Origin: an uncultured bacterium
GTDB taxonomy: Bacteria > UBA8481
DNA: 21,226 bases
Assembly: GCA_964499705.1 (NCBI GenBank)
Contig: CAZCME010000009.1
Coordinates: 126,001 to 147,226 of the forward strand
Direction of reading: 5' to 3'
The notes under the pieces were generated by a model. The model did not search any database. It was given only the letters and a program-made list of their open reading frames with translations, and was not told where the DNA came from. A program made the position numbers and the translations under genes. This document shows, piece after piece, positions 2-21,221 of this stretch. Positions within the stretch are counted from its first letter, which is position 1. Each line of letters opens with the position of its first letter.

Positions 2-784
2 GGCGGGATGCTCGACGAGAAAGGCATCACCAGCCCGCCGGATCGAGCGGCGCTACTCGAGAAGATGCGCGACTCGATGGCGCTTGAACTTCTCGCGCAG
101 TATGACACGTTCGCCGCCGCGACCGAGGCGTCGCTCTCGCCGAAGCTCTCCATCTTCATTCCGCCGGTCTCATCGATGCTCCAGTCGGAACGCGCGCCGC
201 TCGCGGAGTTCCTCGAGATCGACCCCGCGATCGTTCTGTGGGCCGCGCGGTATCCGCGCGGGGAAGAGCCCCCGGCAACGCGGATGATCGTCGCGCGTGC
301 CCGAGCGAAGGCCGCCGACGCTTACGCCGCGCTTTCGTTCGCCGATAAGCTCCGCCTCGCCACGCCGAAGGGCGATGCCGCGATCCGGAAGGTTGTCTCG
401 AACGAAGTCGGAGGCCTCGCGTCGAATCTCGGCGCGGGAATCTTTGCGCAGTACGAATCGTATCTCATCCGGATCAACAGGATGCTGGACGAAGAAGGAG
501 TCGCGGACACCGCCGTGCGGAAGATGATCCTCGGGCCGCGCGCGCGCGACATTTCGGACTCGATGCTCGCGCAGTTCGATCGATTCGCGGCGAAGACGCT
601 CGCGTCGTTCAAGGGCACGACGCCCGTCATCGAGACCGCCGCGAAGGAGACGCTTGCCGAGGAACGTGCCGCCCTTGTCGAGAAGCTGGAGATCAGCCCC
701 GGCGCCTACCGGTGGCCCAACGCGCGGCGCGACGCAACCACAGGCGCGACGGTGCCCGTCGCCTCGGGTGGCTCCGCGCGATGA
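2..784 (+). CDS. Hypothetical alpha-helical protein, probably 5'-truncated by the window; paralog of 18798..19934
   Basis: Frame open from base 2, so ATG at 8 is probably internal. Two internal copies of a helical unit (MLDEKGITSPPDR...ERAPLAEFLEIDP; MLDEEGVADTAVR...ERAALVEKLEISP). Aligns without gaps to the 18798..19934 product. Stop TGA 782-784 overlaps ATG 781. Confidence 0.85.
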   Translation, partial: GGMLDEKGITSPPDRAALLEKMRDSMALELLAQYDTFAAATEASLSPKLSIFIPPVSSMLQSERAPLAEFLEIDPAIVLWAARYPRGEEPPATRMIVARARAKAADAYAALSFADKLRLATPKGDAAIRKVVSNEVGGLASNLGAGIFAQYESYLIRINRMLDEEGVADTAVRKMILGPRARDISDSMLAQFDRFAAKTLASFKGTTPVIETAAKETLAEERAALVEKLEISPGAYRWPNARRDATTGATVPVASGGSAR

Positions 785-840
785 TCCGCCGCCTTCTCGT
801 TCCCGCGCTCATTCTCGCGATGGCGATCTCGTCGCACGCC
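781..840 (+). other. Sec/SPI signal peptide of the giant protein
   Basis: Basic n-region (MIRR), hydrophobic core (LLVPALILAMAI), probable cleavage after S-H-A; no lipobox Cys. Confidence 0.85.
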
Positions 841-3800
841 GCGACGATCAGCGACCAGACCTCGACGACGCTCTCGGACGGAACGATCGCGTGTCTCTTC
901 AAGATCACCGATTACGACGCCGCGCGCGACGGCAACCTCTACATGGTCATCACATCGGGAACGACGCGCACCGTCTACAAGCCCGCTGACAATCCGACCG
1001 GCGATGCGAAGTGGAGCGGGTATCAGGGAGTTGTCCTCGCGAGCGGTACGACGATCACGAAGGCGGAGGTCGTGATTCTCGGGACGGCCGTGCCGACGAC
1101 GATGACTGTCGTCGACCGAGCGTTCGGACCCGTCACCCTGAAGCTCGACGTCGCGGGCGACGCGACGGCCGGCTACACTCTGACGCAGAAGGTCACGATC
1201 GCCGACGTCGGATCGTTCGACGCAGCGGGCTCGTGGAATCCGTCTAAGCCCGATGACCCGATCATGATCGAATCGACCAACGTCTACAAGACGCTCCTCG
1301 GAAATCTCCTCTCGGGGTCTTACGCGACCGACGCCTTCTCGATCGGCGACAAGATCACCGCCACCGTGACTCTGCCGCCGGAATGGATCGCGCAGCTCAA
1401 GAAGGGTGTCAGGATGCAGGACGATCTTGCGGCCTTCTCGACCGGCAACTTCAAGATCTCGATCTCGATTCCGTTCACCCTGAAGATCGATCCCACCAAG
1501 CCCGCCTTCGAGATGATCGCGACCATCGATCCGATCGGAAAGACGGCGACTCTCGCGCTCAAGTCCGGGCAGACCTGGTCACAGCCGCTCAATATTCTTC
1601 CGGCGACGCTATCGTCGATGACTATGACGACCGACGCGGCCTTTGCGCGACTGAACGCGAAGGCAGAGGGCGAGATCGACCTCTTCGGCAAGTTCCCGGC
1701 GAGCGTCGAGATCGTCACGTTGAAGGGCATGAAGCCAGACGTGAAGGTTTCGATGAAGCCGGACGTGAAGATCATCATCGGCGCGCTGAAGTCGCTCAAT
1801 ATCCCGATGGAGCTGGAGAGAATTTACCTTCCGATCCTCGAGAAGATCTCGCTCGGGTCGTTCGAGCTGGGCGATATCGGAAATCTCTCGCTCGGGAAGC
1901 TCCCGACCGCGAACCTCGACTTCACGATCGAGCTTCCGAACTGGAAGCACGACTTCAAGGTTTCGATCCCCGACTTCGACATCAACAAGCCCGACATCTT
2001 CGCCCTGAAGCTAGGCGAGGTCGTGTTCCCGGTCCTGAAGGCGGACTTCGACCTGATCCTCGCGGGGCTCGCCGTCGACATGATCGGCATCGGCTCGTGG
2101 ACGCTCGCGGACATCGACCTCGACGTCGTCGATCTCAAGCTGACGGCCGCAGGCGATCCGACCGCCGGATACGATCTCGCCACCGCGCTCACCGTGAAGG
2201 ACATCGGGACGATGAACGCGACCGGCAAGTGGCTCCCGTCGGCGCCGCTCAATCCGATCACGTTCAAGGTCGATAACATCTTCAAGTCGGCGATGGAAGG
2301 GCTTCTCCAGTCCGCCTATCCGGGCGACGCCTTCTCGATGAACGCGCAGGTCGACGTGACGGTCGGTCTCGCTCAGGAGTGGATCGACCGCCTGAAGAGC
2401 GCCACACCGGACAAGACGCCGTTGAAGTCCGGCGCGTACACCGTCGAGATAAGCCTGCCGTTTACTCTGAAGGTCGACCCGACCAAGCCCGCCTTCAACA
2501 TGATCGCGAAGATTGATCCGATCAAGCAGACCGTCGCGATGGGGCTTGCCCCCGGCCAGCAGTGGGTCGATCCGCTCGGGTTCCTCCCGATCACGTTCGA
2601 CAAGATCGACGCGACATCGGACTTCAAGTTCGAGCGGTTCGCGGTCGCGGCGAAATCGAACGTCACCTTCTTCGGCCAGATCCCGGTCGAGGTCTCCGCC
2701 ATCACGCTGAAGGGGATGAAGCCGGACTTCAAGGTTTCGATCAAGCCCGATGTGAAGATCCTCATCGGCGCGCTGAAGAGCCTGAAGATTCCGATCGAGC
2801 TGGAGAAGATCTACCTCCCGATCCTCGATAAGATCTCGCTCGGGTCGTTCGATCTGGGCGACATCTCCTTCGACGGAAAGCTCCCGACGGCGAATCTCGA
2901 CTTCTCGATCGCGCTCCCGAACTGGAACCACGATTTCAAGATCTCGATCCCCGACTTCGACCTCACGAAACCCGACCTCTTCGCGCTGAAGCTGGGCGAA
3001 GTCGTCTTCCCGGTCTTGAAGGCGGACTTCGACGTGATCCTCGCCGGGCTCGCCGTCGACTTTCTCGGCGTCGGCGCCTGGACTCTCGCGGACGTGGACC
3101 TCGACGTCATTCACATCACAGTCGGAGCGGCCGGGAATCCAACGGACGGGTACGATCTCTCGTCGACGATGACGTTGAAGGACATCGGGACGATGAGCGC
3201 GATCGGAAAGTGGCTCCCGTCCGAGCCGCTCGCGCCGGTCACGTTCAAGGTCGACAACATCTTCAAGTCGGCGATGGAAGGGCTTCTCCAGTCCGCCTAT
3301 CCGGGCGACGCCTTCTCGATGAACGCGCAGGTCGACGTGACGGTCGGTCTCGCGCAGGAGTGGATCGACCGCCTGAAGAGCGCCAAGCCCGACACGACTC
3401 CGTTGAAGACCGGAGCGTACACCGTCGAAGTTACTCTGCCTTTCACACTGAAGGTCGACCCTACGAAGACCGCCTTCAATATGGTCGCGAAGATCGATCC
3501 GATCAAGAAGACCGTCTCGATGGGGCTTGCCTCCGGCCAGCAATGGGCCACACCGCTCGGCTTCCTCCCGATCACGTTCGACAAGATCGACGCGACGTCG
3601 GACTTCAACTTCGAGAAGTTCGCCGTCTCGGCGAAGTCGAACATCTCCTTCTTCGGCGACATCCCGATCGAGCTTTCCGCGATCACGCTGAAAGGGATGA
3701 AGCCGGACTTCAAGGTCTCGATCAAACCCGATGTGCAGTTCCTCATCGGCGCCATCAAGTCGATCAACTTCCCACTCAATCTCCAGGATCTCGTCCTACC

Positions 3801-6800
3801 GGTCCTCGAAGGAATCTCCTTCGGCTCGTTCGAACTCGACAAGATCGACTTCGACGGCAAGCTCCCGACGCTGAACCTAAACTTCTCGATTGCGCTCCCG
3901 AACTGGCGTCACGACTTCAAGATCTCGATGCCCGACTTCGACATCGGAAAGCCCGACCTCTTCGCGACTCGGCTCGGCGAGATCGTTCTTCCCGTTCTGA
4001 CAATCAATCTCGACAAGATCACGGCCGGGCTGATGTTCAAGGGCATCTCCGGCTCGTGGACGTTTGTGGACATGGATCTCGGTATCGGAAAGCTCTACCT
4101 CGGCGCGGCGGGCGACGCGACGAAGGGATACGACATGAAGGGCATCGCGTCGCTCATTGATGTCGGCGCGTTGAAAGTCGACGGGTTCTGGACTCCGGCC
4201 GCGCCGCTCGACCCGATCACGTTCACGACAAAGAACATCTTCAAGACCTGGTACGAGAATTCGCTCGGCGGGATGGTGCCGAAGGAGTGGTTCACGCTCG
4301 GCGAGGATATCACCGCGAAGGTCGGGCTCGCGCCGGAGTGGGTCGAGCGATTGAAGCAGGCGAAGCCGGACACGACGCCGTTTACATCAGGCAAGACTAC
4401 GATCGACGTCTCCCTTCCATTCACGCTGAAGTTCGATCCGCAGAAACCCGCCTTCCGGATGACGGCGACGTACAAGGTCATCGAGAAGACGACGACAATC
4501 GCGATGGATCCCGGCCAGAAGTGGGAGAAGCCGCTCGACATTCTCCCGATCACGTTCGACAAGATCACGATCGGCGCGGACGCCTCGTTCACGACGCTCA
4601 CGGTGAACGCGTCCACGAAGCTCGACTTCCTCGTTCCGTGCAGCGCCGATCTGACGCTCGTGACGTCCAAGGGCAAGGATCCGGCGTACTCGGTCTTCCT
4701 GAGGCCCGACGCCGGAACGAACATCGTCAAGGCGATCCTCGACGGCCGCGTCCCTGCCGGGCTCTCAGGCATGGTGAATGGACTCCTGCCGGGAACCGTC
4801 ATCGAGGAGATCGCTGTCGTGATGGACGCGAAGAAGAAGAAGCCCGACGTCCGGATGAAATTCACGATGACGAAGGGCTCGCTCTCGCAGAAGTTCGATA
4901 TTCTCGTGACCGAAGCCGATCTCGGGAACCCGGCCGACTTCTCCGCGAAGGCCGCGCCGCAGATCCTCGATCAGCTGACGAATGGCACGATCGGCAAGGC
5001 GACGACGGAACTGCTCGAGTCGCTCGGCCTCGGCCCGATCGACTGGACAATCCTCGACGTCAATGTTCTCAACCAGCTCATTCTGATGGTGAACGTCAAG
5101 GGCGCCCCAAGCACCGGTTACACGATGACCGCCGACATGAAGGCGCTCATCTTCGAAAAGTTCACGATGACGGGAAAGTGGGATCCGGCGAAGCCGACCG
5201 ATCCGATCAAGTTCACCGCGGACAAGAACGTCTTCAAGCCGAGCTTCGACGCGACGATCGGCAAGCTGATGCCGGAAGGGTCGATGGTGCTGAAGAACGA
5301 GCTATACGCCATCGTCACATTCCCCTCGGCGGTCACGGATGCGCTGAAGTCGAACGGCGCCGGCGGAAAGTCCACAAGCGCCGACGGTCTCGACGTCGAG
5401 ATCGGCTTCCCGATGGAACTGAAGATCGATCCGACGAAGACAACAATGTTCAACATGATCGGGAGCATCTATCCGACGCGCGGCCAGGTCGGTCTCGCGC
5501 TCGCGCCGGGCCAGACGTGGGAAAAGCCCTTCGGCTTCGTGCCCGCGACATTCAACACGCTGAACGTCGCGACGGATCCGAGCTTCACGCAGGTGACGGT
5601 CCACGCCGACGGCACGACCGACTTCTTCGAAGGATCGACGCTCGAATTCCAAATCGACCTTCTTATGGTCCAGGGGCAGAAGCCGGATCTGAAGATCCAG
5701 ACGAAACCTTCGGCCGATCTCATCGCGGCGATCGTCAAACGCGCGAAGGTGCCCGAGGCTCTGGCGGCCTCTCTGCCGTCGGTGACGATCAAGAAGTTCA
5801 AGATCGCGGCGGATTACTCCGCGATGGCGGGCGGCAATGACGGCGGCGCGACCTGCGAGCTGATTCTGAATGTCGATCATGACCTGACCGGTTACATCGA
5901 CATCGAGATCAGCGTCCCGGCCGTGAACCTGACCGATCCCGCGAACTTCGTCGAGATCGTCGCCAAGGAACTCTCGAAGAAGCTGGGAGACGCGGCGAAT
6001 ATCGTCGGCCAGCTCACGCAGAACCTTGGCAAGAAGCTCGGTGATGCCGGGAGCGATCCGCTCGGCACCGCGGAGAAGGCCGCGGATGACGCCGCCAAGA
6101 AAGGCGAGGCACTCGGCACCGAAGCCTACGAGTATATGAAGAATCCGAAGAAGGCCGTGAACCAGCTCGTGGATCTCGGAGAAGACCTCGCAAACAAATT
6201 GTATGACGAGGCGAGCAAGTGGGCGAAGGATCCGATCGGCGAGGCGAGGAAGAAGGCCGAGCAGGCGGTCGCCGCCGCGAAGGCTGTCGTCGAGGGCGCG
6301 CTAAACCTCCTTTCGGATGCCGCGGATTTTCTTTCGGATCTCCTCAGCGACATCTGGGGCGCGATCACGGGCGAGTCCGAGCGGAAAGCCCGGGCGAAGA
6401 AGGCGGATGCCGAAGCAAAGGTCGAAGAGGCGCGGCGTGCGTTGAAAGAGGCCGAGGATCTTGAGCTGGAGGCGATCGAGTTGGTGCGGTATCGCGAGCA
6501 GTTCAAGCAGGCGGTCACGCTACAGCACTGCGAGGACATCATCAGTTCGGTGAAGGTGAACAAGGCCTGCGTCATCGAGGGCGGCGGCATGAAGATTCTC
6601 CGCGCGGCGTCGAACGCGTTCATCAAGGATATCGACGCGAAGAAGTCGAAGATCCGCGAGATCTTCTACGAAGATCTCATCAACGACGGCACAATCATGA
6701 ATCTCGGTTACAAGAAGAACGGCGACGTCTATATGTCGAACACGATGACGAAGGCCGGGATGGAGGAGCTGAAGACGTGGATCGACGGCGATACGCTCTT

Positions 6801-12800: not shown

Positions 12801-15800
12801 GATCGACGCGAGCATGGAAGGGCTCAAGAAGGGCGACCTGCCTGACGTCGCGGTCGACTTTGCGATCGAGCTTCCGAACTGGCAACATCACTTCGACTTG
12901 AAGTTTCCCGATGTCGATCTTGCGAACATGCCGAAGTTCGCGAAGCTCTTCGGCGATCAGGTGTGGCCGGTCCTCATCGCGAATCTCCCGAAGATAACGC
13001 TCGGCCTCGCATTCGGCGCGGGCGACCTCTACTTCCCGCTCGCCGACCTCGACCTGGGCGTCGTCACACTCGACATCGACGCGATGGGCAACCTCGCGAA
13101 GGGTTATGACCTCATCGGAAAGATCGCGGTCAAGGATGCTGGTGAGTTCGAGATGAAGGGGCACTGGGATCCTGCGAATCCGCTCGCCGTCATCAAGTTC
13201 GACGCGCCGAACATCTTCAAACCGCTTTATCTCGGCTCGCTCGGCAAGATTCTTCCTGCCGGCGCCTTTGAGTTGGGCGACAAACTCATCGTCGAACTCA
13301 TTCCCGATCCGGGCTGGGTCGAGGTGCTCCAGAAGGCCGGGATCCAGACCGAAGAAGACGCGAAGCGTGCGGGACACGGGTGCAAGATCGACGTCGGCTT
13401 CCCGCTGAAGATGAAACTCGATCCGACGAAGCCACCACTCGATATGGAGATGCGCGTCAACCTCCTCACGAAGATCGCCTCGATGCGCCTCGCATCGTCG
13501 CAGAAATGGGAGAAGCCATTCGATCTTCTTCCGATCAGCTTCACGTCACTTGAGGTCGGCACGGACAAGGAGATGAAGGCGCTCGCGGTCCGCGCCGTCG
13601 GCAAGGCTGACTTCTTTGTCGCTTGCGGCGCGGATCTCGACTTCGAACTGAGCGCTGACGGAAAAGAGAAGCCGTTCACGGTCACGCTGAAGCCCGAGGG
13701 CGACCTCTTCGGCGAGATCGTGAAACTGAGCGGCGCGACGGTTGATCAGAGGAAACTCCTCGACGCGGTACTCCCGGGCCTCCACCTCAACGAACTCACG
13801 ATCGACGGCGATTACGCCGAGATGCAGGCGAAGAAAGGCGCGCCCGATGTGAACTTCAACGTCACACTTGACGCGCTCGGAGCGAAGAAGACCTTCGAGA
13901 TCAAGATCGTCAAGTGCGACTTCGACAAGCCCAAGGTCATCGCGGCGCAGGTTATTCCGCAGATCATCGCCCAGCTCTCCGGCGTCGATCTGAAGGGCGC
14001 CGGCGCCGAACTCCTCGGCGCGCTCGGACTCTCCGGGCAATGGACGCTCATCGACGAGAATCTCCAGTTCTTCGAGATCAAGGTCGAGGCCGAGGGCGAT
14101 CCGAAGACCGGCTACAAGCTCGACGGCTTCGGCAGGATCTCCGGAATCGGCCGCATGAACTTCATCGGGAAGTGGGACGCGGCCGATCCGCTTGCTCCGA
14201 TCGTCTTCGAGGCGGACAACATCTTCAAGCCGATCTTCGAGAAGACGGTCGGAACCGCGGTCCCGAAGGACAAGCTTGAACTCAAGGACAAGCTCTACGT
14301 CGTCATGGGCCTATCCGGACCGCTGGTGGAATCGCTGCGGCGCGGCACGGGAACGTCCGAGGAGGGGCCTAAGAGCGAGGATGAAGACCTTGTCGGCTTC
14401 TCGATCGACGTCAACTTCCCCATAAAGCTCGGGATCGACCCGACGCAGAAGCCCTTCGACATGACCGCGACCGTGAAGCCCCTCGAGCAGACCGCGTCGA
14501 TCGCGCTAGATCCCGGCGTCGTCTGGGACAAACCCTTCGGCATCTTCCCCGTGACCTTCAGCGCGCTGAACGTCGGCACCGATCCGACGTTCACGACCGT
14601 CATCATCGACGCGTCGGGCAAGTCGGACTTCCTCGGCGAGATGGAGTTCAACATCGAAGCGACCTTGAAGAAGAACGAGAAACCGAAGCTGAAGATCCTC
14701 GCTCTTCCGTCCGGCGACATGGTCGCGGCGATCATGAGGAAGGTGAAGATTCCTTCGACCATGGCGACGCCCAAGGTAACGCTCGAGAAGTTCATGATTG
14801 CCGCGGGCTTCGATCAGCTCGTGGCCGGGAAGCTCCCGAGCGCGGCGCTGAAGTTCAAGATCAACACGCTCGCGACCGGCGACGTGAACGTCGACATCAA
14901 CATCCCGAGCATCAGCTTCAAGGAGCCTGACAAGTTCGCCACGGCCGTGGCGAAAGAACTGACGCAGATTCTTTCGCAGATGGTGACGAAGATCGGGCCG
15001 CAGATCATCGCGAACGCGACCGGCACGGTGAAGAGCGCGGTCACGGATCCGGTCGGCACGGGCAGGAAAGCGGCCGAGGCGGGTAAAGAAACCGCCAAGG
15101 ACCTCGGCAACGCCGCATACGACTTTGCGAAGGATCCGGCCGCCGGCACGAAGAACCTCGTCAACGGCGCCGCCGATCTCGGTAAGTCGATCGGCGAGGG
15201 CGCTTACAACGCCGTCAGCGGCGAGGTGAACAAATGGGCGAGTGATCCGGCCGGCGCGGCGTCGGAGAAGGCGCAGGCCGCGATGGCGAAGGCCGAGGAG
15301 GCCTACAACGCCGTCTCGGGATTTATCTCGGACATCGGCGGCGCGGTGTCAGAAATCTTCAGCCGGGAATCCGAGAAGGAAAAGCGCGGCAAGCGGGAGA
15401 TCATCGCTCTGAAGGATCTCAGCGAGCGCGCCAAGTCCGCCAAGACCGTTGCCGATATCAATGCCATCATGGCTGTGACCGACAACAACACCGACCTCTG
15501 CTGGGATGCCAACGGTACGAAGACCTGCGGCCATCGCACGGCCGAGTTCCGGAAGATCCTCCGCGAGATGCGCGACGCCTTCAACGAAGTCACGCTCGAA
15601 AAGCTCCGCGCCCGCGCCGAGAGCGCGACGAGCACGGACCAGCTTCAGAAGATCCTCGACGAGATCGAAGCGAATCCCGACCTCTGCTCGGGTTCGGGCG
15701 ACAAACTTTCCTGCTCCGGAAATGCCGTGAATCTTTGGAACGAGATACTCGCGATGTGGGACAAGGTCGTGGAGAGACGCGAGCAGATCGAGTTGGCGGA

Positions 15801-18800
15801 GATCGAGAAACTTCGAACCGCAGCCGAATCTGCCCGGTCGAAGGACGATCTGAAGAAGATCTTCGACCGGATCGAGAAGAACAAGATCCTCTGCTCGGGT
15901 AGTCGCGCGGCCAAGAACCTCACCTGCTCAATACTCACCTTCGCCTTCTGGAACGAACTCGCCGCGGTCGAGGCTCTTCTCCCCGAGTTCCAGAGGATCG
16001 AGACCGACAAGACCGACGCCGACCTCGACAAGCGGGTCGCGCAAGCCGCAGGATACGGGACGAAATACGGACAGGGGCCGACCTGGGCCAAGCACTTCGA
16101 GAGATTCACGACGGCGCTCGAGGCGCAGAGAGTTGTGGCGAAGGCGCGTCGGTTGAAGCTCGTACGCGAATACATCAAGGACCCCAACACGGGCGGCGGC
16201 CTGATCGCGGTCGCCGAGTGGTTGAGCGGCAAGAGACCGACGCTTACCGGCGTCACAGCGAACGGCATGGTCTGGGAAAAGGCAACGGCCGCGGAAGCTT
16301 TCACCGCGACGGAGATCGAGTCTCTTCAGAAGGAGATCGCTCAACGGAAGTCCGATGACCTCACCGCCGGAATCCTGCGTTCGCTCGGAACAAACTGGAA
16401 CGAGGAGTTTCTGAATCGCGTGAAGAAGTTCCTGGCCGGGGGCCGGGATCCGGAATACGGCGATCCCACGACGCTTTCGAACGAGCAAAGGAAGAAGATT
16501 CAGGAAAAGGTCGATTCAAGACTAGCTGATCTGGCGGAGAAGCGGAACGAAGTGTTCAAGAGGGCGAAGGAGATTATCGCCGGTGTCAAAACGCCCGCAG
16601 GCCTCGACGACTTCGTCCGGAATCTGGAGCAAGGCAGGCTGCTCGACGGCAATGTTAGGCTCGCGATTTCCGCTCTGCAAGCAACGCAGATGGAGGAATT
16701 ATCCAGGTTGATTGAGGTGCAGAGGAAGGCAATCGGAAATGTCGCCGAGACGCAGATGAAGGCGGTTCGCGACAGCGTGGCCAGGGCCTCGTCGATGTAC
16801 GAGCTCTCCGACTACGAAATGCAGCTCAAGGACGGCCGGTCACTCGATTCGTTGAAGGTCAATGCTCTTACCAGCGACCAGATCCAAACGCTCCTGAAGG
16901 AGGTCGCGGCGCGCGAAAAGGAACTTCAGAAGTCGCTTCCGGATCAGCAGGAGAAGGCCTACGTCGATCTCATCAAGACTGCGGACCTCGAGACGCTCAC
17001 GCAGGTCGTCGACGGGCTCTGGAACTGGAAACCCCGAATCGGCATTCTGAACGCTAATCTTCCGGCTGCGAGCGAGATGAGCCGCGCTCAGGTCGATAAG
17101 CTCACGGCAATCGCGAAGCCAAAATTGACTGGAATTATCCTCACGAACGCCCGCGAGTTCATCGAGAAGCAGACAGGCGATGCCCCGCTGAGTGCGATGC
17201 GCGCTTACCTCGGCACATTCATCTCCAATCAGCGGGTTCAGCCGCCGATGCAGACGGCTATCGAAAACTACAAGGTCGACCGTCTTATGCTCTTCAGGCT
17301 GGATCGCCCCGACCTCATAGGCTTGCAATCGACAATTGACAGGCGTCTGGAGACCTTGAAGACCGCCGGCTCGGTCGAGGATTTCCGGAAGCTCATCGCG
17401 ACGGCGAAGGACGCGACTCGGCTCTCGCAACTCATGAGCCATTTCACATCCGACGGTCGCTCGGATCCGTCGCTGAAACTTCCGAGCCCGGCGAAGCTCT
17501 CGAAGACCGAGAAGGATTCATTCGTCGTGGAGATCAAGGAGAAGATGAAAGCTCTCTCCACGCCCGCTGTGATTCCGCTCGGGATCGTGGAGCAGTTCAG
17601 AAAAATCATCGGCACGGAGATGAGTCAGCCGGTTCTCTCCGAGCTTATGAACCACATCCAGTCCGGAGGACGAAATACGAATCCCGCGCGCAAGTGGCCC
17701 GCGACGACGAGTCTCAATCCGAAGGATAAGGAGACCCTTCTCGATGCCATCAAGGCGCGGATCGAATTGCTCAAGAGGCCCGCGAGTACGACGTCGCAGG
17801 GAACGCCGGTTCAACAGCCGTGGGGACAGTCCGCCTCGGGGACGTCATCTGGCGCACCGACGACTACTGCGGCCACGGGCAGCGCGGATGTGAGTCAGAA
17901 GCTCACCGCGATCATCGCCGCCTCCACCGAGATCCCGCTCCTCAATGAACTGATGAACCACGTCCAATCCGGCGGCCGGAACACGAATCCGACGCGGGGT
18001 TGGCCCGCGACAGCGAATCTGGACCAGGGGTCGAGGATTTCGCTCATCGCCGCGATCAGAGGGAAGATCGAGGCAATCCAGCGACAAGTCAGCGCGCCGC
18101 CACAGGGATCGACACAGCCGGCGGCCGCCGCGCCGGCGCAGGGAGTCACGGTGGTCCTCACCTGGACCGATCGCGGCGACGGCGATCTGCTCGTGAACGG
18201 AGCGCCCAGCCATTATAGGGGTGGTTCACCTGACGTCAGAACCGGGCCGGGCGAGGAGAAGATCACGCTGACCTCCGGTGTGAACACGATCGCCGCGCGA
18301 TGGAGCGGCGGACCTGCGGCGAGATTGACGGTCACGATTTATGTTTCGGGGCAGACGCCTCAATTGTTCACGCTGACCTTGAACCCGGGACAGACATCGA
18401 ACTTCTGCACGATCGACGCGGCCAGGAGAACCGTCAGCCCGGCGCCCGGAATCTCGCAAGGGACGCAGCAGCAGAGCGGGGCGTCCTCATCGAGCGGACC
18501 AGTCTGGGTGGCGGTCTCCTGGACGGACGCGGTGGATGTCGATCTCTTCATCGACGGCAAACCCGGTTCCGCGCAGGGTGGATCTCCCGACGTCTCGCGC
18601 GGCCCGGGCGAAGAGAAACTTTCGCTCACCTCTGGAACCCACAAGATCGCGGTGCGTCGCTTCGGCGGAACGCCAACAAAGGTGAAGGTGACGATCGCGA
18701 TACCGGGCAAAGCAACCGAGGTGTTCGAGCAGACCATAGGCTCCGGAGCGCCTGTCGTGTTCGGAACGTTGAACGTCGAACAGAAGGTGTTTGTGAAATG

Positions 18801-18801
18801 A
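781..18801 (+). CDS. Giant secreted multi-repeat protein (6006 aa): 8 unrecognised ~330-aa modules, helical repeat arrays, DUF4214-like, 2x F5/8 type C and 2x YfaP/DUF2135-like domains
   Basis: 18-kb uninterrupted frame with strong G/C-ending codon bias. ATG 781 gives a typical signal peptide (MIRRLLVPALILAMAISSHA/A) and overlaps the upstream stop (ATGA), so it is preferred over the GTG at 712. Confidence 0.95.
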   Translation: MIRRLLVPALILAMAISSHAATISDQTSTTLSDGTIACLFKITDYDAARDGNLYMVITSGTTRTVYKPADNPTGDAKWSGYQGVVLASGTTITKAEVVILGTAVPTTMTVVDRAFGPVTLKLDVAGDATAGYTLTQKVTIADVGSFDAAGSWNPSKPDDPIMIESTNVYKTLLGNLLSGSYATDAFSIGDKITATVTLPPEWIAQLKKGVRMQDDLAAFSTGNFKISISIPFTLKIDPTKPAFEMIATIDPIGKTATLALKSGQTWSQPLNILPATLSSMTMTTDAAFARLNAKAEGEIDLFGKFPASVEIVTLKGMKPDVKVSMKPDVKIIIGALKSLNIPMELERIYLPILEKISLGSFELGDIGNLSLGKLPTANLDFTIELPNWKHDFKVSIPDFDINKPDIFALKLGEVVFPVLKADFDLILAGLAVDMIGIGSWTLADIDLDVVDLKLTAAGDPTAGYDLATALTVKDIGTMNATGKWLPSAPLNPITFKVDNIFKSAMEGLLQSAYPGDAFSMNAQVDVTVGLAQEWIDRLKSATPDKTPLKSGAYTVEISLPFTLKVDPTKPAFNMIAKIDPIKQTVAMGLAPGQQWVDPLGFLPITFDKIDATSDFKFERFAVAAKSNVTFFGQIPVEVSAITLKGMKPDFKVSIKPDVKILIGALKSLKIPIELEKIYLPILDKISLGSFDLGDISFDGKLPTANLDFSIALPNWNHDFKISIPDFDLTKPDLFALKLGEVVFPVLKADFDVILAGLAVDFLGVGAWTLADVDLDVIHITVGAAGNPTDGYDLSSTMTLKDIGTMSAIGKWLPSEPLAPVTFKVDNIFKSAMEGLLQSAYPGDAFSMNAQVDVTVGLAQEWIDRLKSAKPDTTPLKTGAYTVEVTLPFTLKVDPTKTAFNMVAKIDPIKKTVSMGLASGQQWATPLGFLPITFDKIDATSDFNFEKFAVSAKSNISFFGDIPIELSAITLKGMKPDFKVSIKPDVQFLIGAIKSINFPLNLQDLVLPVLEGISFGSFELDKIDFDGKLPTLNLNFSIALPNWRHDFKISMPDFDIGKPDLFATRLGEIVLPVLTINLDKITAGLMFKGISGSWTFVDMDLGIGKLYLGAAGDATKGYDMKGIASLIDVGALKVDGFWTPAAPLDPITFTTKNIFKTWYENSLGGMVPKEWFTLGEDITAKVGLAPEWVERLKQAKPDTTPFTSGKTTIDVSLPFTLKFDPQKPAFRMTATYKVIEKTTTIAMDPGQKWEKPLDILPITFDKITIGADASFTTLTVNASTKLDFLVPCSADLTLVTSKGKDPAYSVFLRPDAGTNIVKAILDGRVPAGLSGMVNGLLPGTVIEEIAVVMDAKKKKPDVRMKFTMTKGSLSQKFDILVTEADLGNPADFSAKAAPQILDQLTNGTIGKATTELLESLGLGPIDWTILDVNVLNQLILMVNVKGAPSTGYTMTADMKALIFEKFTMTGKWDPAKPTDPIKFTADKNVFKPSFDATIGKLMPEGSMVLKNELYAIVTFPSAVTDALKSNGAGGKSTSADGLDVEIGFPMELKIDPTKTTMFNMIGSIYPTRGQVGLALAPGQTWEKPFGFVPATFNTLNVATDPSFTQVTVHADGTTDFFEGSTLEFQIDLLMVQGQKPDLKIQTKPSADLIAAIVKRAKVPEALAASLPSVTIKKFKIAADYSAMAGGNDGGATCELILNVDHDLTGYIDIEISVPAVNLTDPANFVEIVAKELSKKLGDAANIVGQLTQNLGKKLGDAGSDPLGTAEKAADDAAKKGEALGTEAYEYMKNPKKAVNQLVDLGEDLANKLYDEASKWAKDPIGEARKKAEQAVAAAKAVVEGALNLLSDAADFLSDLLSDIWGAITGESERKARAKKADAEAKVEEARRALKEAEDLELEAIELVRYREQFKQAVTLQHCEDIISSVKVNKACVIEGGGMKILRAASNAFIKDIDAKKSKIREIFYEDLINDGTIMNLGYKKNGDVYMSNTMTKAGMEELKTWIDGDTLLNSASKTSLKALIDKKLTPPAIDRDTAMAWIRYLALHENDRILTALKKHINGEYVDNYVLFPNVSNLSSGDKTTLQGELDIAIAAYIAKKSEREYALFIDMIENAKTDAELVGYKAWIRSMDVLSKAPVSDLEYLSVTQVEDLRNRIDARRKNIGVEGGTATVRAIKSVIARQLGQANVLSYDLVSYLAQMGKMIDQSFTATDGRTKETRMTADGSAEHFRFKDIWAPLKFEMEIRSDLFRLGQVDDTAVKALTADHRKTVITAVEAAIAKLIALDSLYDTYAEWSTAMTAYVASSSRDDVYAELDERISRIATVEDAERALNHLTDEARAFKWPDIRKLSAGDTSTLIAKIEAKLDGYRQTAFTTAKSWIENSFENPEWLFKADKYLKGVLHLHEVKPMPDLSFLKRAQVRDLQKLVAEKLKPYAQMQNIRDYMNNPARTGAQLKLLEDLLGGFTNTGLPEELGTVATMTTEQTATLKAELKIVREPFTSIDYVRWYIGKESNVLFLKWMQESLLGTAKHDWGGNMYVEKIPSGTLATLQNDVAAKIAEIEAQAVNGLATIKKQIADAPTLKELKAWSSYIVSTPRGPKPREDAPDIANISADDLTNVYWYDIGPLEKDAVKLTAQLEKVSTETEAATLIADIAKSTLGTAFKASLTADAEKMRTAYKTGGSETMLKFKKWVTEFAGPSIEPLRIFCFFLREPYGSYNNQPPSGQDWMGSLVGSLREGEKSALYKAVELQAERNALKNATTVAECEAILAEYTSSSAASKVVVWDYSGVEEAKAEINAKITALKAAAAAAAAAEKPNALKRIRDWTASATDRDLLDKAARFVFNYRQLAPPAGITWIDTDVGLQTSADRTILFNEMELRQSVLYVREKAAPLTTVADLEALRKDVSGYNYGDTVKAVLYKEIDPKIASLKEAAATAAAASQAILTKGRDWLATVTDKEKAFDLYRYIHNYPSTSYAPPAGMEWLNAEIVALNADDRASLKNDAAATGNLIGVRNDLTAAQSIEACNAIKDQLKAGYYTGLTADHKAEWTTKIDSKIAELRSNGITELFTDSAGALKLIRNWIESSTSKDDLDKVQRYVANYPTMKPLPASADWAASVCKLLTSDQRTAIKKELTQRMAILAVRNNIAAKNFRDAQTGLDWNIQNQNLTTDQATMLKKEIDDAQRAPYVEKYGDAWVAVDKAYRDRIPGLKTDADITALKSEINADTRLPSEAKELLLKAVTDAGAKTIKAAVRASIAEVYKRIIGSDADATTLDGYVTNFATKGLASIATELFASSGFTGKTNTEKIKSLYRFVLWREPDNAKVTTYNSSGKTIAAIGNEMQTLDEFKNLASDTKTFIRTVLGWSTGQAASFSASSNNLTRWKTATSSAACATSEDASKAFNGNEKDKWCSTAGEKWLQVDLGLSCNITEFVIAHAQIGGEPSSTSSDYNTRDFSISVSVDNSAWTKVVDVTASSGAVTIHPVKTTGRYVKLAITKPTQGTDQAARIYEFEVNGSPATTFTPSSSNLARGRTATSSTACATTEAADKAVNGNGKDKWCSTASERWLKVDLGASCNITEFVIAHAEAGGEGVDYNTSAFEISTSPDNTTWTKAVTVTGNTSGVTKHSVTASAARYVKLAITKPAQNSDNAARIYEFEVNGSVVGPSAIVAPSGSVSAPSAVAAPSAVAVAPSAVAIAPAATAARMEAAPLAIAAPASAVMITRAETATPLATRIDTSAATTDTPSAPEPWQLCEFTEGDITVRIDALGDATAGYELTGRIGLKGTAALGGEGNLPLKGRWDPANPNAPVKFEAENILKPGFEKSLGELIPKDWIELGDKLGAILTLDPRWIQRLQAGEDNREDIDWYKEEKVYKIELAFPMKLKLDPTKPAFAMTVKANPIHHTVAIEMDPGQTWDKPFNLLPVKFPRINLGTDEKVSKFDIDAAGEMDFIVKALVDMKLVTTPGRSPELKLDLKTQGDFVDGALKRAGIPPEISKYFTAISSKFKFKSLKIDASMEGLKKGDLPDVAVDFAIELPNWQHHFDLKFPDVDLANMPKFAKLFGDQVWPVLIANLPKITLGLAFGAGDLYFPLADLDLGVVTLDIDAMGNLAKGYDLIGKIAVKDAGEFEMKGHWDPANPLAVIKFDAPNIFKPLYLGSLGKILPAGAFELGDKLIVELIPDPGWVEVLQKAGIQTEEDAKRAGHGCKIDVGFPLKMKLDPTKPPLDMEMRVNLLTKIASMRLASSQKWEKPFDLLPISFTSLEVGTDKEMKALAVRAVGKADFFVACGADLDFELSADGKEKPFTVTLKPEGDLFGEIVKLSGATVDQRKLLDAVLPGLHLNELTIDGDYAEMQAKKGAPDVNFNVTLDALGAKKTFEIKIVKCDFDKPKVIAAQVIPQIIAQLSGVDLKGAGAELLGALGLSGQWTLIDENLQFFEIKVEAEGDPKTGYKLDGFGRISGIGRMNFIGKWDAADPLAPIVFEADNIFKPIFEKTVGTAVPKDKLELKDKLYVVMGLSGPLVESLRRGTGTSEEGPKSEDEDLVGFSIDVNFPIKLGIDPTQKPFDMTATVKPLEQTASIALDPGVVWDKPFGIFPVTFSALNVGTDPTFTTVIIDASGKSDFLGEMEFNIEATLKKNEKPKLKILALPSGDMVAAIMRKVKIPSTMATPKVTLEKFMIAAGFDQLVAGKLPSAALKFKINTLATGDVNVDINIPSISFKEPDKFATAVAKELTQILSQMVTKIGPQIIANATGTVKSAVTDPVGTGRKAAEAGKETAKDLGNAAYDFAKDPAAGTKNLVNGAADLGKSIGEGAYNAVSGEVNKWASDPAGAASEKAQAAMAKAEEAYNAVSGFISDIGGAVSEIFSRESEKEKRGKREIIALKDLSERAKSAKTVADINAIMAVTDNNTDLCWDANGTKTCGHRTAEFRKILREMRDAFNEVTLEKLRARAESATSTDQLQKILDEIEANPDLCSGSGDKLSCSGNAVNLWNEILAMWDKVVERREQIELAEIEKLRTAAESARSKDDLKKIFDRIEKNKILCSGSRAAKNLTCSILTFAFWNELAAVEALLPEFQRIETDKTDADLDKRVAQAAGYGTKYGQGPTWAKHFERFTTALEAQRVVAKARRLKLVREYIKDPNTGGGLIAVAEWLSGKRPTLTGVTANGMVWEKATAAEAFTATEIESLQKEIAQRKSDDLTAGILRSLGTNWNEEFLNRVKKFLAGGRDPEYGDPTTLSNEQRKKIQEKVDSRLADLAEKRNEVFKRAKEIIAGVKTPAGLDDFVRNLEQGRLLDGNVRLAISALQATQMEELSRLIEVQRKAIGNVAETQMKAVRDSVARASSMYELSDYEMQLKDGRSLDSLKVNALTSDQIQTLLKEVAAREKELQKSLPDQQEKAYVDLIKTADLETLTQVVDGLWNWKPRIGILNANLPAASEMSRAQVDKLTAIAKPKLTGIILTNAREFIEKQTGDAPLSAMRAYLGTFISNQRVQPPMQTAIENYKVDRLMLFRLDRPDLIGLQSTIDRRLETLKTAGSVEDFRKLIATAKDATRLSQLMSHFTSDGRSDPSLKLPSPAKLSKTEKDSFVVEIKEKMKALSTPAVIPLGIVEQFRKIIGTEMSQPVLSELMNHIQSGGRNTNPARKWPATTSLNPKDKETLLDAIKARIELLKRPASTTSQGTPVQQPWGQSASGTSSGAPTTTAATGSADVSQKLTAIIAASTEIPLLNELMNHVQSGGRNTNPTRGWPATANLDQGSRISLIAAIRGKIEAIQRQVSAPPQGSTQPAAAAPAQGVTVVLTWTDRGDGDLLVNGAPSHYRGGSPDVRTGPGEEKITLTSGVNTIAARWSGGPAARLTVTIYVSGQTPQLFTLTLNPGQTSNFCTIDAARRTVSPAPGISQGTQQQSGASSSSGPVWVAVSWTDAVDVDLFIDGKPGSAQGGSPDVSRGPGEEKLSLTSGTHKIAVRRFGGTPTKVKVTIAIPGKATEVFEQTIGSGAPVVFGTLNVEQKVFVK
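1102..5990 (+). repeat. Five tandem ~326-332-aa beta-rich modules (R1-R5)
   Basis: Unit starts at about 1102, 2098, 3079, 4057 and 5044. Shared motifs: G(D/N)xTxGY, GxWxPxxPxxPI, N(I/V)(F/Y)K, LKxDP(T/Q)K, GQxWxxPxxxxP, and PNWxHDF in R1-R3. Confidence 0.9.
6055..6402 (+). other. Pro-kinked amphipathic helical segment, copy 1
   Basis: DPLGTAEKAA..., NPKKAVNQLV..., KWAKDPIGEARKKAEQA..., ending ESERKARAKK; homologous to 15046..15396. Confidence 0.7.
6760..10500 (+). repeat. Array of degenerate short alpha-helical repeats (half 1)
   Basis: Recurring L(S/T)xx(D/Q/H)xxxLxxxI(D/E)x(K/R)(I/L) ends, e.g. LSSGDKTTLQGELDIAI, LSVTQVEDLRNRIDARR, LSAGDTSTLIAKIEAKL, LTADHKAEWTTKIDSKI. Confidence 0.7.
9184..9210 (+). 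repeat. (GCC)8-GCG trinucleotide tract encoding 9 Ala
   Basis: gccgccgccgccgccgccgccgccgcg, in frame, between helical repeats. Confidence 0.95.
10519..10818 (+). other. DUF4214-like domain within the giant protein
   Basis: IAEVYKRIIGSDADATTLDGY...IATELFASSGF...NTEKIKSLYRFVLWREPD...LDEF resembles the DUF4214 pattern (LYxxxLGRxPD...SxEF). Confidence 0.65.
10903..11748 (+). repeat. Two tandem F5/8 type C (discoidin/CBM32-like) domains: 10903-11313 and 11347-11748
   Basis: Both carry NL...ATSS, KA(F/V)NG...KWCS, WL(Q/K)VDLG, FxISxSxDNxxWT, RYVKLAIT and ARIYEFEVNG, which are typical F5/8 type C motifs. Confidence 0.92.
11749..12015 (+). other. Ala/Pro/Ser/Thr-rich linker joining the two halves
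   Basis: PSAIVAPSGSVSAPSAVAAPSAVAVAPSAVAIAPAA...TTDTPSAPEP, with short APSAV repeats. Confidence 0.8.
12016..14990 (+). repeat. Three further copies of the ~330-340-aa module (R6-R8)
   Basis: Unit starts at about 12016, 13033 and 14041; same motifs as R1-R5 (GDATAGY, WDPANP, NIFKP, KLDPTKP, W(D/E)KPF, IELPNWQHHF). Confidence 0.9.
15046..15396 (+). other. Pro-kinked amphipathic helical segment, copy 2
   Basis: DPVGTGRKAA..., DPAAGTKNLV..., KWASDPAGAASEKAQAA..., ending ESEKEKRGKR. Confidence 0.7.
15420..18090 (+). repeat. Helical repeat array of half 2, starting with three Cys-loop repeats
   Basis: LC-x8-C, LC-x8-C and LC-x10-C (first Cys at 15499, 15685, 15892), then units ending LSNEQRKKIQEKVDSRL, LTSDQIQTLLKEVAARE, LSKTEKDSFVVEIKEKM, LNPKDKETLLDAIKARI, LDQGSRISLIAAIRGKI. 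Confidence 0.75.
18142..18798 (+). repeat. Two C-terminal beta-sandwich domains, YfaP/DUF2135-like (18142-18417 and 18499-18798)
   Basis: VVLTWTDRGDGDLLVNG...GGSPDVRTGPGEEKITL and VAVSWTDAVDVDLFIDG...GGSPDVSRGPGEEKLSL resemble the VxLxW...DxDLxV...D...GxGPE pattern of YfaP/DUF2135. Confidence 0.6.
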
Positions 18802-19934
18802 ACGCGCGGCATTACATCATCGGATTCTCAATGCTGACCTGCGTTTCCGTTTCGGCTCTTCCCGCGTCGGCGCAGACACCGTCGCCGACGGACTCAGCGC
18901 TCCCCGGCGAAGACGTTTCCACCGCTCCCGAGGCGCCACCGGCCCAGTCCGCGCCGGATGTCGCGGCAAGACCGCGCTCCGCCGCATCGGTGGCCGAGCC
19001 ACCGGCGCCTCTCGAAAATGTGGAACCCGCCAGCGCGCTTGAAGCGGCCATCGAAGGAACGCGGAGCGCCACCCGGACGCTCGTTCAGAATCTCTCCGAC
19101 GAGTTCCTGAAATTCGTCGTCCGCACCGCCGAGTCGCTCGACACCCGCGGCATCGTGAAGCCCGAGCACCGCGAAGCGATGATGGTGCCCGCGGGTAACG
19201 TCCTGGTCGACACCCTCGTCGCCCGGTTCGCCGCATACGAAGTCGTGTTGACGACCCGATGGGCGAAGGCCGCTCCGGCGCTCGCACCCGGGATCGTGAA
19301 GATGCTGGAAGCGGAGCGCGATCGCCTCGAGGAGTTCCTCCGCGCGGACCCCGCCATCATCGAGCGGATCGCGAAGGAGGCAACGCCGCCGACAACCCAG
19401 GCGACGACGCTCTTCATGGAGCGCGTCGCCGAGGCGACAGCAATCGCGGACTCGGGGCCGGGCTTCACAAAGCGACTCCAGAGAGCGAAGATCGCCTGCG
19501 ATTGCGAAGTCGAACGCGTCGTGCGTCGCCGTGTACGGATGGAAGCGGGAAAAGTCGCGGACGGAATCGCCGACGGGTACGTGGCGTTTATCGTCGCGGC
19601 GGAGAACGCTCTCAACAAGCAGTACATCTTCGACAGCGGCGTCCGGCGGAGCATTCTCGAGCCGCAAGCGAAGACGGTCGCCGACTCCATGCTCCGGGAC
19701 TACAACGCATACGCCGAGGCGACGAAGAAGGCCTTCGCCGGAGCGGGCGACCTCGTCTCGAAGCCGGCGAGCGCGGCATTGGAAGTGGAGAGAGAAACTC
19801 TACGGCGCTTCCTCGCAACCGACATTACTTTGCTGAAGGCCGTGATGGAGCAGGCGCTCGAAGACGGTGATGCGGCGGACGGCCGCGCCGTTCGTGGGAT
19901 GATAGAGAAAGCGTCTGCGCACGTATCCCGGTGA
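18798..19934 (+). CDS. Secreted hypothetical helical protein (378 aa), paralog of the ORF ending at 784
   Basis: ATG 18798 overlaps the giant gene stop (ATGA). Signal peptide MNARHYIIGFSMLTCVSVSALPASA/Q, Pro/Ala-rich linker, then two helical units ending ERDRLEEFLRADP and ERETLRRFLATDI. Confidence 0.88.
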   Translation: MNARHYIIGFSMLTCVSVSALPASAQTPSPTDSALPGEDVSTAPEAPPAQSAPDVAARPRSAASVAEPPAPLENVEPASALEAAIEGTRSATRTLVQNLSDEFLKFVVRTAESLDTRGIVKPEHREAMMVPAGNVLVDTLVARFAAYEVVLTTRWAKAAPALAPGIVKMLEAERDRLEEFLRADPAIIERIAKEATPPTTQATTLFMERVAEATAIADSGPGFTKRLQRAKIACDCEVERVVRRRVRMEAGKVADGIADGYVAFIVAAENALNKQYIFDSGVRRSILEPQAKTVADSMLRDYNAYAEATKKAFAGAGDLVSKPASAALEVERETLRRFLATDITLLKAVMEQALEDGDAADGRAVRGMIEKASAHVSR

Positions 19935-19987: not shown

Positions 19988-20909
19988 GTGGATGTCTCCC
20001 GAAAGCGAGCGCTCTGTTTCTTCTCGTTCCTCTTTCTGGTCGCGGCTTCCGCTGCGGCGGAGCCGTTGACCATCACGCCATCCCGAGATACCACAACGTT
20101 ACCCTTCTCGCGGGTGGAGGAGAGCCTCCTTATCAATTCCGTCTGCTCGTCAATCGCTCCGGCGCCAGACTGACACCTGCTTCGAACAATGTGAAATACT
20201 CGACGGGAATGCGCGACCTCGTCGCGGACGTGATCGAAGTGAGGGACGCCCGCGGCGAAAGAGCTTCGACGACCAACGCCGTCGATCCCGTCTTGACTCT
20301 CGATCCGCCCGTTGTCCATGTCCATCCCGGCGGCACAGTGCGATTCGACGCGAACGCCGAGGCTGTAACGCCCTTCGTCGTCCTCAGGTCCGCGGGATCG
20401 ACGAGCACGATCGATGACGAGGGTCTCTATACCTGCGGCAGCGTTCCGGACACCGTGGAGTATGTCCAGGCCACGGAAGATCACGGGACATCCATCCTCG
20501 CACGGATCGAAGTGACGCCGGAGCAGGACATCAATCTTGTGAAAACCTTCATCGGCACCATGGCGAGGCTTCTCATCAAGGAAGAAGACCGACCAAAGGA
20601 AGAGGCTGCGCCGAACGAGACTCCGCCGCCCGCGATGCGGAAACCTGTCATCCTGAACGATCTCTTCATCGAACATGCCTATCGAGCGCTCCTGAAGCGA
20701 AAGCCCGGTCGCCGCGAATATCATGAAGCGCTCGCTCTCTTCGACGCCGGCGCGACCAGGCAAATGGTGGCGCGCGCCGCTTGTAACGTTCCGGAATTCC
20801 GTCGCGATATTCTCACGAAGACCATGCAGGGAATGTTCGGCCGGCCTCCGCCGAGGTCGAAGACCTCATTGCCAACGCCATCACGGCAACGTTCAGCGGA
20901 CAGGATTGA
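19988..20909 (+). pseudogene. Frameshifted secreted protein: signal peptide, two Ig-like repeats, DUF4214-like domain
   Basis: Frame 2 from GTG 19988 gives a signal peptide (RKRALCFFSFLFLVAASAAA/EPLTITPS). Frame 1 from about 20085 continues VTLLAGGGEPPYQF...DVIEVRDARG...LTLDPPVVHVHPGGTVRF...TIDDEGLYT, then FIEHAYRALLKRKPG...PEFRRDIL...FGRPP. A likely second shift near 20850 gives frame 3 AEVEDLIANAITATFSGQD*. Sequencing error cannot be excluded. Confidence 0.65.
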
Positions 20910-21074
20910 TTGCATGAAAAGTGTGTTACGGTCGCACCTCCCCCGTCCCTCCTGCGTTCGATAATCGCCCTCCTCATCCTCCTCGGCACTATCACGGCTC
21001 GCTCACGTCCCCAATCGGCAGACGAGAACATCAGAGCGCGATACTCGTCGTGCTCAAGGACGAGTTTGTCTTCC

Positions 21075-21138: not shown

Positions 21139-21221
21139 TGGAGGGAGAAGGATTCGAACCTTCGAAGGCGTGAGCCAGCGGGTTTACAGCCCGCCCCATT
21201 TGGCCGCTTTGGTATCCCTCC
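21139..21221 (-). tRNA. tRNA-Tyr (anticodon GTA), CCA not encoded
   Basis: Reverse complement GGAGGGATACCAAAGCGGCCAAATGGGGCGGGCTGTAAACCCGCTGGCTCACGCCTTCGAAGGTTCGAATCCTTCTCCCTCCA: 7-bp acceptor stem, GCGGG/CCCGC anticodon stem with CTGTAAA loop, long variable arm, GTTCGAATC T-loop, discriminator A. Confidence 0.97.

Follow-up and report, generated by a model that had tools for sequence, protein, structure and literature searches.

Two paralogous helical proteins encoded on either side of a 6006-residue exported repeat protein in an uncultured groundwater bacterium

The stretch of DNA analysed here, 21,226 nucleotides in length and referred to below as the window, comes from the genome of an uncultured groundwater bacterium (source genome G000, contig C9; G000:C9:126001-147226, the contig end coinciding with that of the window), and its sequence indicates a giant exported repeat protein of 6006 residues accompanied by accessory proteins. 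Both the module repeated within the giant and the family to which the two flanking proteins belong appear to be undescribed. The flanking proteins are paralogous and all-helical in class and their genes overlap that of the giant, and since helical proteins of the same kind also accompany the giant's relatives in other genomes, they look like its dedicated partners. There is, in our estimation, an even chance that these partners are fixed subunits of the cell envelope that bind the giant, serving its assembly, anchoring or capping, with its lectin domains facing glycans. The upstream and downstream proteins are named A-type and B-type, respectively, after the two clades of the family to which they belong.

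The open reading frames (ORFs) on either side of the giant gene were already considered homologous in an initial annotation of the window, and this was substantiated. The two proteins were aligned by BLASTP at E=3e-19 with 27% identity over 222 residues and no gaps, the stretch from DPAI to DSML that had been singled out being 116 residues long and ungapped in both, and their Smith-Waterman score was 256 against 41 +/- 6.7 (maximum 71) in 500 shuffles (z=32). The two internal helical units claimed for each protein were also recovered when the N-unit was compared with the C-unit in the same kind of shuffle test (z=25 for the upstream and 12.7 for the downstream protein). They correspond to two successive bundles in the AlphaFold2 model of the downstream protein (7-row alignment; mean predicted local distance difference test score, pLDDT, of 77.4), which is all-helical over residues 77-376, with pLDDT mostly at 84-96 per 10-residue block over residues 80-370 and low confidence over residues 1-75, which comprise the signal peptide and a Pro/Ala/Ser-rich stretch. 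As previously noted, the downstream protein has a signal-peptide-like start ending in ASA-Q, judged by eye; the full upstream protein has a signal-peptide-like N-terminus as well.

Neither protein had been assigned to a known family, and the searches concur. The partners gave no Pfam match above the cut-off and none in NCBIfam, PADLOC or PHROGs; comparison of their profile with PDB sequences returned nothing below E=0.57, Foldseek comparison of the model with PDB nothing at E<0.1, and the ESM Atlas no usable lead for partner or module. The partner family itself would thus seem, on these searches, to be undescribed. A comparison of charge and isoelectric point between the partners and segments of the giant revealed no pattern. 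The notion that the partners are detached copies of the helical repeats of the giant was rejected because the partner profile finds no similarity in the giants (best domain E=1.3).

The family is a very small one. Three relatives were retrieved in a word-indexed search, one of them named Candidatus Lindowbacteria, and an exhaustive profile search of 1.84 billion representative proteins yielded 18 members at E<=1e-3, of which 15 reached E<=1e-30, all with lengths of 224-378 residues; three relatives carry source names ("Elusimicrobia bacterium" metagenome-assembled genomes (MAGs) or "hypothetical protein"). The maximum-likelihood tree of 17 members is divided into two clades, each with 98/98 support, one containing the upstream protein (A-type) and the other the downstream protein (B-type). 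The partners are conserved at 34-48% identity across phyla, with lengths of 300-380 residues.

The proposal that a hidden Markov model (HMM) built from the two paralogues should find relatives beside module-bearing genes was followed up in three genomes, where all six partner copies with readable context were located in the gene string of a related giant, five of them abutting it. One of these genomes, the Lindowbacteria MAG G041, which belongs with G042 and G043 to a single phylum other than that of G000, contains two such loci. At the first, a 3537-residue giant aligns with residues 2-1920 (47% identity) and 3010-3656 (41% identity) of the giant described here, and is thus orthologous to the first half alone; after its gene, and overlapping it by 4 nt, comes an A-type gene, then an ORF6N gene and a B-type gene, the last encoding an orthologue of the downstream protein (48% identical). 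At the second, a 2159-residue giant with a single module and a bulb-lectin-like repeat at its end, read by eye, has an A-type gene beginning 13 nt downstream of its own. The G042 locus consists of the 3' part of a giant gene, cut by the contig end, and an A-type gene that follows it with a 4-nt overlap; the encoded part has no module, aligns with the post-module helical region, ends in a discoidin domain and shares 23-33% identity with our giant outside that domain, and a module-bearing 5' giant fragment is situated at another contig end. An A-type gene hence stands beside every related giant with readable context, and a B-type gene beside the long discoidin-bearing form. A search of metagenome contigs for related loci returned the same G041 contig only. 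The earlier suggestion of one partner for each half of the giant fails, because the one-part giant of G041 carries both clades; the one-module giant has an A-type alone.

Partners and giants also co-occur. Modules and partners were each detected in one of the five genomes (86-96% complete) of the GTDB phylum of the source organism, G000 in both instances, and in three and two, respectively, of the four genomes of the phylum of G041. Across these nine genomes of two small phyla, partners were encountered only where an intact giant is present. The module-bearing genome lacking partners, G043, retains a giant remnant at L033:~8950-10014 (G043:C30), consisting of a signal peptide and N-terminal domain, an in-frame stop, approximately 260 residues of one module and a premature end. 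The search for partners, which drew on 31 genomes (27 being unrelated fill-ins) and gave two positives, detected none in G043.

The coupling of the genes is evident from the sequence of the window, in which three same-strand ORFs occupy positions 2-19934 (ORF listing) and both of the 4-nt ATGA overlaps described previously, at 781-784 and 18798-18801, are present. The full A-type gene extends over G000:C9:125792-126784, beginning 209 nt upstream of the window, and encodes 330 residues; a further ATGA overlap joins its start to the stop of a gene for a 387-residue YhcG-like PDDEXK nuclease; the four genes (YhcG-like, A-type, giant and B-type) are therefore chained, as their stops and starts overlap. 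Scans for consensus promoters and terminators gave counts at or below shuffle expectation, with zero terminator-like sites after the B-type gene. The features are as follows, in coordinates of the window.

2..784, plus strand: 3' part (last 260 codons) of the A-type partner gene, a 5'-open ORF whose clade is taken from the tree
781..784, plus strand: ATGA overlap of the A-type stop and the giant start, the junction reading ...cgcgATGAtcc...
781..18801, plus strand: giant gene, 6006 residues, ATG at 781, signal-peptide-like N-terminus at residues 1-21
1099..6069, plus strand: modules M1-M5, residues 107-1763, about 330 residues each (self-comparison and module HMM)
6070..10875, plus strand: first-half helical region, residues 1764-3365 (about 1600 residues), its helicity read from the sequence and the folded part being residues 1417-2120 only
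10876..11760, plus strand: two F5/8 type C (discoidin, CBM32-like) domains, residues 3366-3660 (Pfam E=4e-34; PDB CBM32 chains)
11761..12009, plus strand: Ala/Pro/Ser-rich linker between the halves, residues 3661-3743 (from the sequence; bridged by independent contigs)
12010..15060, plus strand: modules M6-M8, residues 3744-4760 (self-comparison and module HMM)
15061..18066, plus strand: second-half helical region (about 1000 residues), with Cys-containing repeats at residues 4939-5063 and repeats of about 70-100 residues at 5530-5777 (self-comparison)
18067..18792, plus strand: two C-terminal repeated domains of about 115 residues, residues 5763-6004, with no family match (self-comparison)
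18798..18801, plus strand: ATGA overlap of the B-type start and the giant stop, the junction reading ...gaaATGAacg...
18798..19934, plus strand: B-type partner gene, 378 residues, encoding a signal peptide, a Pro/Ala/Ser-rich low-confidence stretch of about 50 residues and two helical bundles at residues 77-376

The giant had been described as a two-part protein, in agreement with the tiled self-comparison and the module HMM, which resolve eight copies (5+3) of a beta-rich module of approximately 330 residues, together with an N-terminal domain of approximately 85 residues between the signal peptide and the first module. The join between the halves is not an assembly artefact, because it is spanned, with no difference, by contigs from two further runs belonging to two studies (X2 record 14, 10467-12358; X3 record 21, 11332-12366). 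Protein identity between M2 and M3 reaches 74-84% across 200-residue tiles (window 2092-4050), against 25-55% for other module pairs, which points to a recent tandem duplication inside the giant gene. Repeats of approximately 125 residues (residues 2700-3180) and a post-module segment conserved in all related giants are contained within the first-half helical region. The C-terminal repeats, with their W-x-D...D-x-D-L...GPGEE pattern, may recall a DUF2135/YfaP-type domain; no Pfam hit was obtained at E<=0.01.

The model of the module, built from a 13-row alignment of modules (pLDDT 85.4), is mainly beta with a C-terminal helical hairpin. No match to the module was obtained in Pfam or NCBIfam, nor to its model at E<=0.001 in PDB by Foldseek (best E=3.5e-3, template modelling score 0.11) or among the BFVD viral models, and the best Z among 48,161 chains in the VIA wide search was 6.0, with no convincing relative. 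An AsmA/TamB-like relationship was likewise looked for; no Pfam match was seen, and no such chain figured among the 50 VIA matches listed. Neither the module profile nor the second-half helical and C-terminal part matched PDB by sequence, and PHROGs gave no match for the module, the C-terminus of the giant or its helical stretch. On this evidence the module appears to constitute an undescribed family. The lectin domains, by contrast with these parts, match a known family: PF00754 scores 117.9 bits against a cut-off of 28.2 in two stretches, and residues 3366-3660 match the CBM32 chains of chitosanase (DD1/DD2, PDB 4zy9 and 2rv9) by sequence at E=6e-6; the CBM32-like domains make up 5% of the giant.

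Direct binding was addressed by co-folding, as the initial annotation had recommended, using residues 35-312 of the A-type protein (17-row alignment) and residues 1417-2120 of the giant (5-row alignment), the latter comprising the last module of the first half and the post-module helical segment conserved in related giants, a pairing chosen as the most general one. The interaction prediction score from aligned errors (ipSAE) was 0.50, 0.52 and 0.51, against 0.00 for the best of three controls, with partner pLDDT of at least 79 and agreement between runs in at least 74% of contacts, and the verdict for this one pairing was "weak support". When the method was calibrated, 58 of 80 solved complexes passed the mark, as did 2 of 110 mismatched pairs; of the passing scores, those of 0.60 or lower came from only seven of the 80 complexes and from both mismatches. 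Given the prior supplied by the linkage, the result raises modestly the odds that the A-type protein binds the giant directly, and falls short of proof.

Taken together, the locus is one coupled string of genes, the YhcG-like gene, the A-type gene, the giant gene and the B-type gene, in which the giant would be a lineage-restricted, Sec-exported protein composed of helical rods, beta-rich modules and lectin-type end domains. The partners, putative double three-helix-bundle proteins exported separately and belonging to two anciently separated clades with distinct roles, would associate with the giant in the cell envelope at near-stoichiometric levels, the likeliest site being its last module or the conserved helical segment that follows. 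They would act as assembly, anchoring or capping subunits of a glycan-binding surface or envelope fibre, and the giant would present its lectin domains to glycans. Apart from the lectin domains, we infer the function of every part, and there is as yet no mechanism. The dedicated-partner reading of the initial annotation is retained in part, with a family of its own, linkage of all six readable copies, co-occurrence and the weak co-fold result in its favour; its suggestion of one partner per half is set aside, and that of an immunity-like role is judged unlikely.

Several observations weigh against the partners being fixed subunits of this kind. The linkage counts concern six of about 20 family members and are not independent, because the three genomes are kin or share the cassette, and the A-type gene is upstream of the giant in G000 and downstream of it in G041 and G042. 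According to the method, a co-fold score of the weak class misleads in most cases other than those in which the guess was likely beforehand, and the score here came from shallow alignments (5 and 17 rows) with no interface reported. Only generic three-helix bundles were matched by the partner model in the VIA wide search, the best Z of 9.9 falling below the noise level of about 13 for helical models. Spectrin repeats were among the best matches listed (1aj3, Z 8.8, rmsd (root-mean-square deviation) 3.7 with 98 residues aligned; 3edv, Z 8.7), and the partner model likewise consists of two successive three-helix bundles; these values of 8.7-8.8 also lie in the noise range of the tool, at 5-13% identity and with no Pfam match to the spectrin superfamily, and speak for the fold class only. 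Finally, no outer-membrane route is evident for the giant, in which Pfam and NCBIfam disclosed no signature of type IX secretion (T9SS), two-partner secretion (TPS) or type I secretion (T1SS). T9SS cargo families were matched neither in the giant nor in its last 368 residues, and related giants end differently; no TPS domain was found, the neighbours being helical or of unrelated families with no Omp85-type TpsB among them; and there was no RTX/HemolysinCabind match, the N-terminus looking by eye like a Sec signal peptide. Because no export signature was found, the term "surface" is an assumption, and the protein could stay in the periplasm.

The helical proteins might instead be transient periplasmic chaperones or export-assembly factors that hold the 640-kDa giant in a secretion-competent state and have no place in the final structure, a possibility that we regard as real though doubtful. 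Export signals on both partners, their all-helical nature, the linkage and the co-occurrence would all fit such a role, and the weak co-fold result fits it equally well. However, coupled translation across 4-nt overlaps suggests that the proteins are made in near-equal amounts, as is commoner among the subunits of a complex; Pfam gave no above-cut-off match at E<=1, whether to Skp/OmpH, to Spy/CpxP or to another family; and the existence of two conserved clades that differ in distribution points to two separate, fixed roles. It is less probable again that the genes are neighbours with no physical link between their products, the helical proteins having an envelope function of their own (for example as an A-B heterodimeric scaffold) and travelling with the giant as a block. 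The few genomes that supply context are kin or have a transferred block in common, and the presence of unrelated candidate defence genes in these strings demonstrates that hitch-hikers are tolerated; against this, the linkage recurs at a second, separate G041 locus with a different giant and in G042, whose giant shows no more than 23-33% identity once the discoidin domain is set aside, the genome in which the giant has decayed to a remnant lacks partners, and the co-fold controls scored 0.00.

Least credible of all, to the point of being nearly dismissed, is a polymorphic-toxin-like system in which the giant would deliver a C-terminal toxin and the downstream helical protein would confer immunity. 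The gene order does resemble CdiA/CdiI and Rhs/RhsI loci, in which a giant secreted protein is directly followed by a small gene. Neither half of the giant nor its last 368 residues contains a toxin domain in Pfam or NCBIfam, though, and the C-termini of related giants, which are lectin-type rather than recognisable toxin domains, vary from locus to locus beside a conserved partner; signal peptides are present on both partners, one of which is encoded upstream, and these are proteins of 300-380 residues conserved at 34-48% across phyla. These points also render the immunity-like role suggested earlier unlikely. A further precedent in general layout is the operon of the giant gliding adhesin SprB of Flavobacterium johnsoniae with SprC, SprD and SprF, which also couples a repetitive exported protein of about 6000 residues with smaller dedicated accessory proteins. 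The giant described here nevertheless shows no evident sequence relation to that system, neither a SprB repeat nor a T9SS C-terminal domain having been detected in it by Pfam or NCBIfam, and its partners are helical, not barrels of the PorP/SprF type.

In the literature, the locus tags of the homologues were found in no paper, supplementary gene lists lying outside the texts covered. Lindowbacteria appear as an outgroup to Spirochaetes in an excerpted study (10.1101/2025.07.04.663154), and passages of the "Giant genes" preprint (10.1101/2023.11.21.568195) contain no Lindowbacteria and no arrangement of this sort.

A broader proposal goes beyond partners that act as envelope subunits: the giants and their two clades of spectrin-like partners would represent a previously unknown envelope or extracellular fibre, built on a beta-module that has no solved relative and requiring A-type and B-type proteins to co-assemble as its anchor or cap subunits, and the cassette, often with a candidate defence gene, would move between phyla. 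We consider this unlikely in its entirety.

As to the origin of the locus, the cassette has probably moved between the two phyla rather than descended vertically with repeated loss, as sequence comparisons suggest. RpoB of G000 is 77-78% identical to that of its own-phylum relatives and 52% identical to those of G041 and G042. The giant (47% over approximately 1950 residues) and the B-type protein (48%) are about as similar to their G041 counterparts as the core proteins RpoB and Tgt are, and transfer of a block is favoured because these fast-evolving exported proteins match G041 as well as core proteins do. The product of a syntenic upstream gene of 745 codons has an identity of 45% in G041 and 44% in G042, whereas no copy was found in G002-G004, and the four own-phylum relatives lack the giant, the partners and this gene. 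The contig is not misbinned, because Tgt, 32 kb upstream on it, resembles that of own-family relatives (67-69%, against 47% to G041 and G042). Cross-phylum affinity was also noted for a second gene of the contig, an aconitase-like gene of 907 codons (G000:C9:61701-64424) with 60-62% identity to G041 and G042 and weak own-phylum matches of 36-39% over approximately 230-285 residues.

Candidate single-gene defence genes are located within the giant and partner gene strings of all three genomes. The YhcG/DUF1016 PDDEXK nuclease gene at G000:C9:124632-125795 (PADLOC PDC-S02, E=7e-118), ATGA-coupled to the A-type gene, is single-copy in its genome; a 37%-identical YhcG homologue is found two genes after the partner in G042 (L015:5202-6356, minus strand), and the ORF6N gene of G041 (L004:9291-9905; PDC-S05, E=1e-50) is sited between two partner genes with 4-nt overlaps on both sides. 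PADLOC assigned no family to the partners or the C-terminus of the giant, the YhcG-like and ORF6N neighbours being the only matches. The related loci share further pieces with no counterpart in the window (L015:6431-7591, minus strand; L008:15397-17727; L010:1020-3485). A 386-residue discoidin protein of G042 resembles, in its C-terminus, the end of a 776-residue protein similar to the major facilitator superfamily (MFS) encoded upstream of the G041 giant and, in its N-terminus, an 821-residue protein encoded after the second G041 partner.

A set of AT-rich palindromic repeats (TTTGTAATTTG.../...CAAATTACAAA) occurs upstream of the window at G000:C9:115777-115877, 118001-118130, 122820-122935 and 123302-123336, with further copies on contigs C3, C6, C11, C14 and C22; they are situated at the 5' ends of several exported-protein genes, where they are read as the start of the signal peptide. 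Beyond the B-type gene, the window contains a 257-residue ORF (20191-20964), for which neither a family nor a counterpart at the related loci was found, and a tRNA-Tyr (GTA) gene on the minus strand (21139-21221) at the contig end.

Giant exported proteins of uncultured bacteria are for the most part unannotatable, and the present one offers three handles: a well-modelled module with no solved relative, lectin-type ends and a tiny partner family that tracks the giant. Two new families, that of the module and that of the partner, could be defined from it, and the probable transfer between phyla, together with the embedded candidate defence genes, adds an evolutionary angle. The pair of giant and partner may accordingly offer a tractable case for how very large proteins assemble or become anchored in the bacterial cell envelope.

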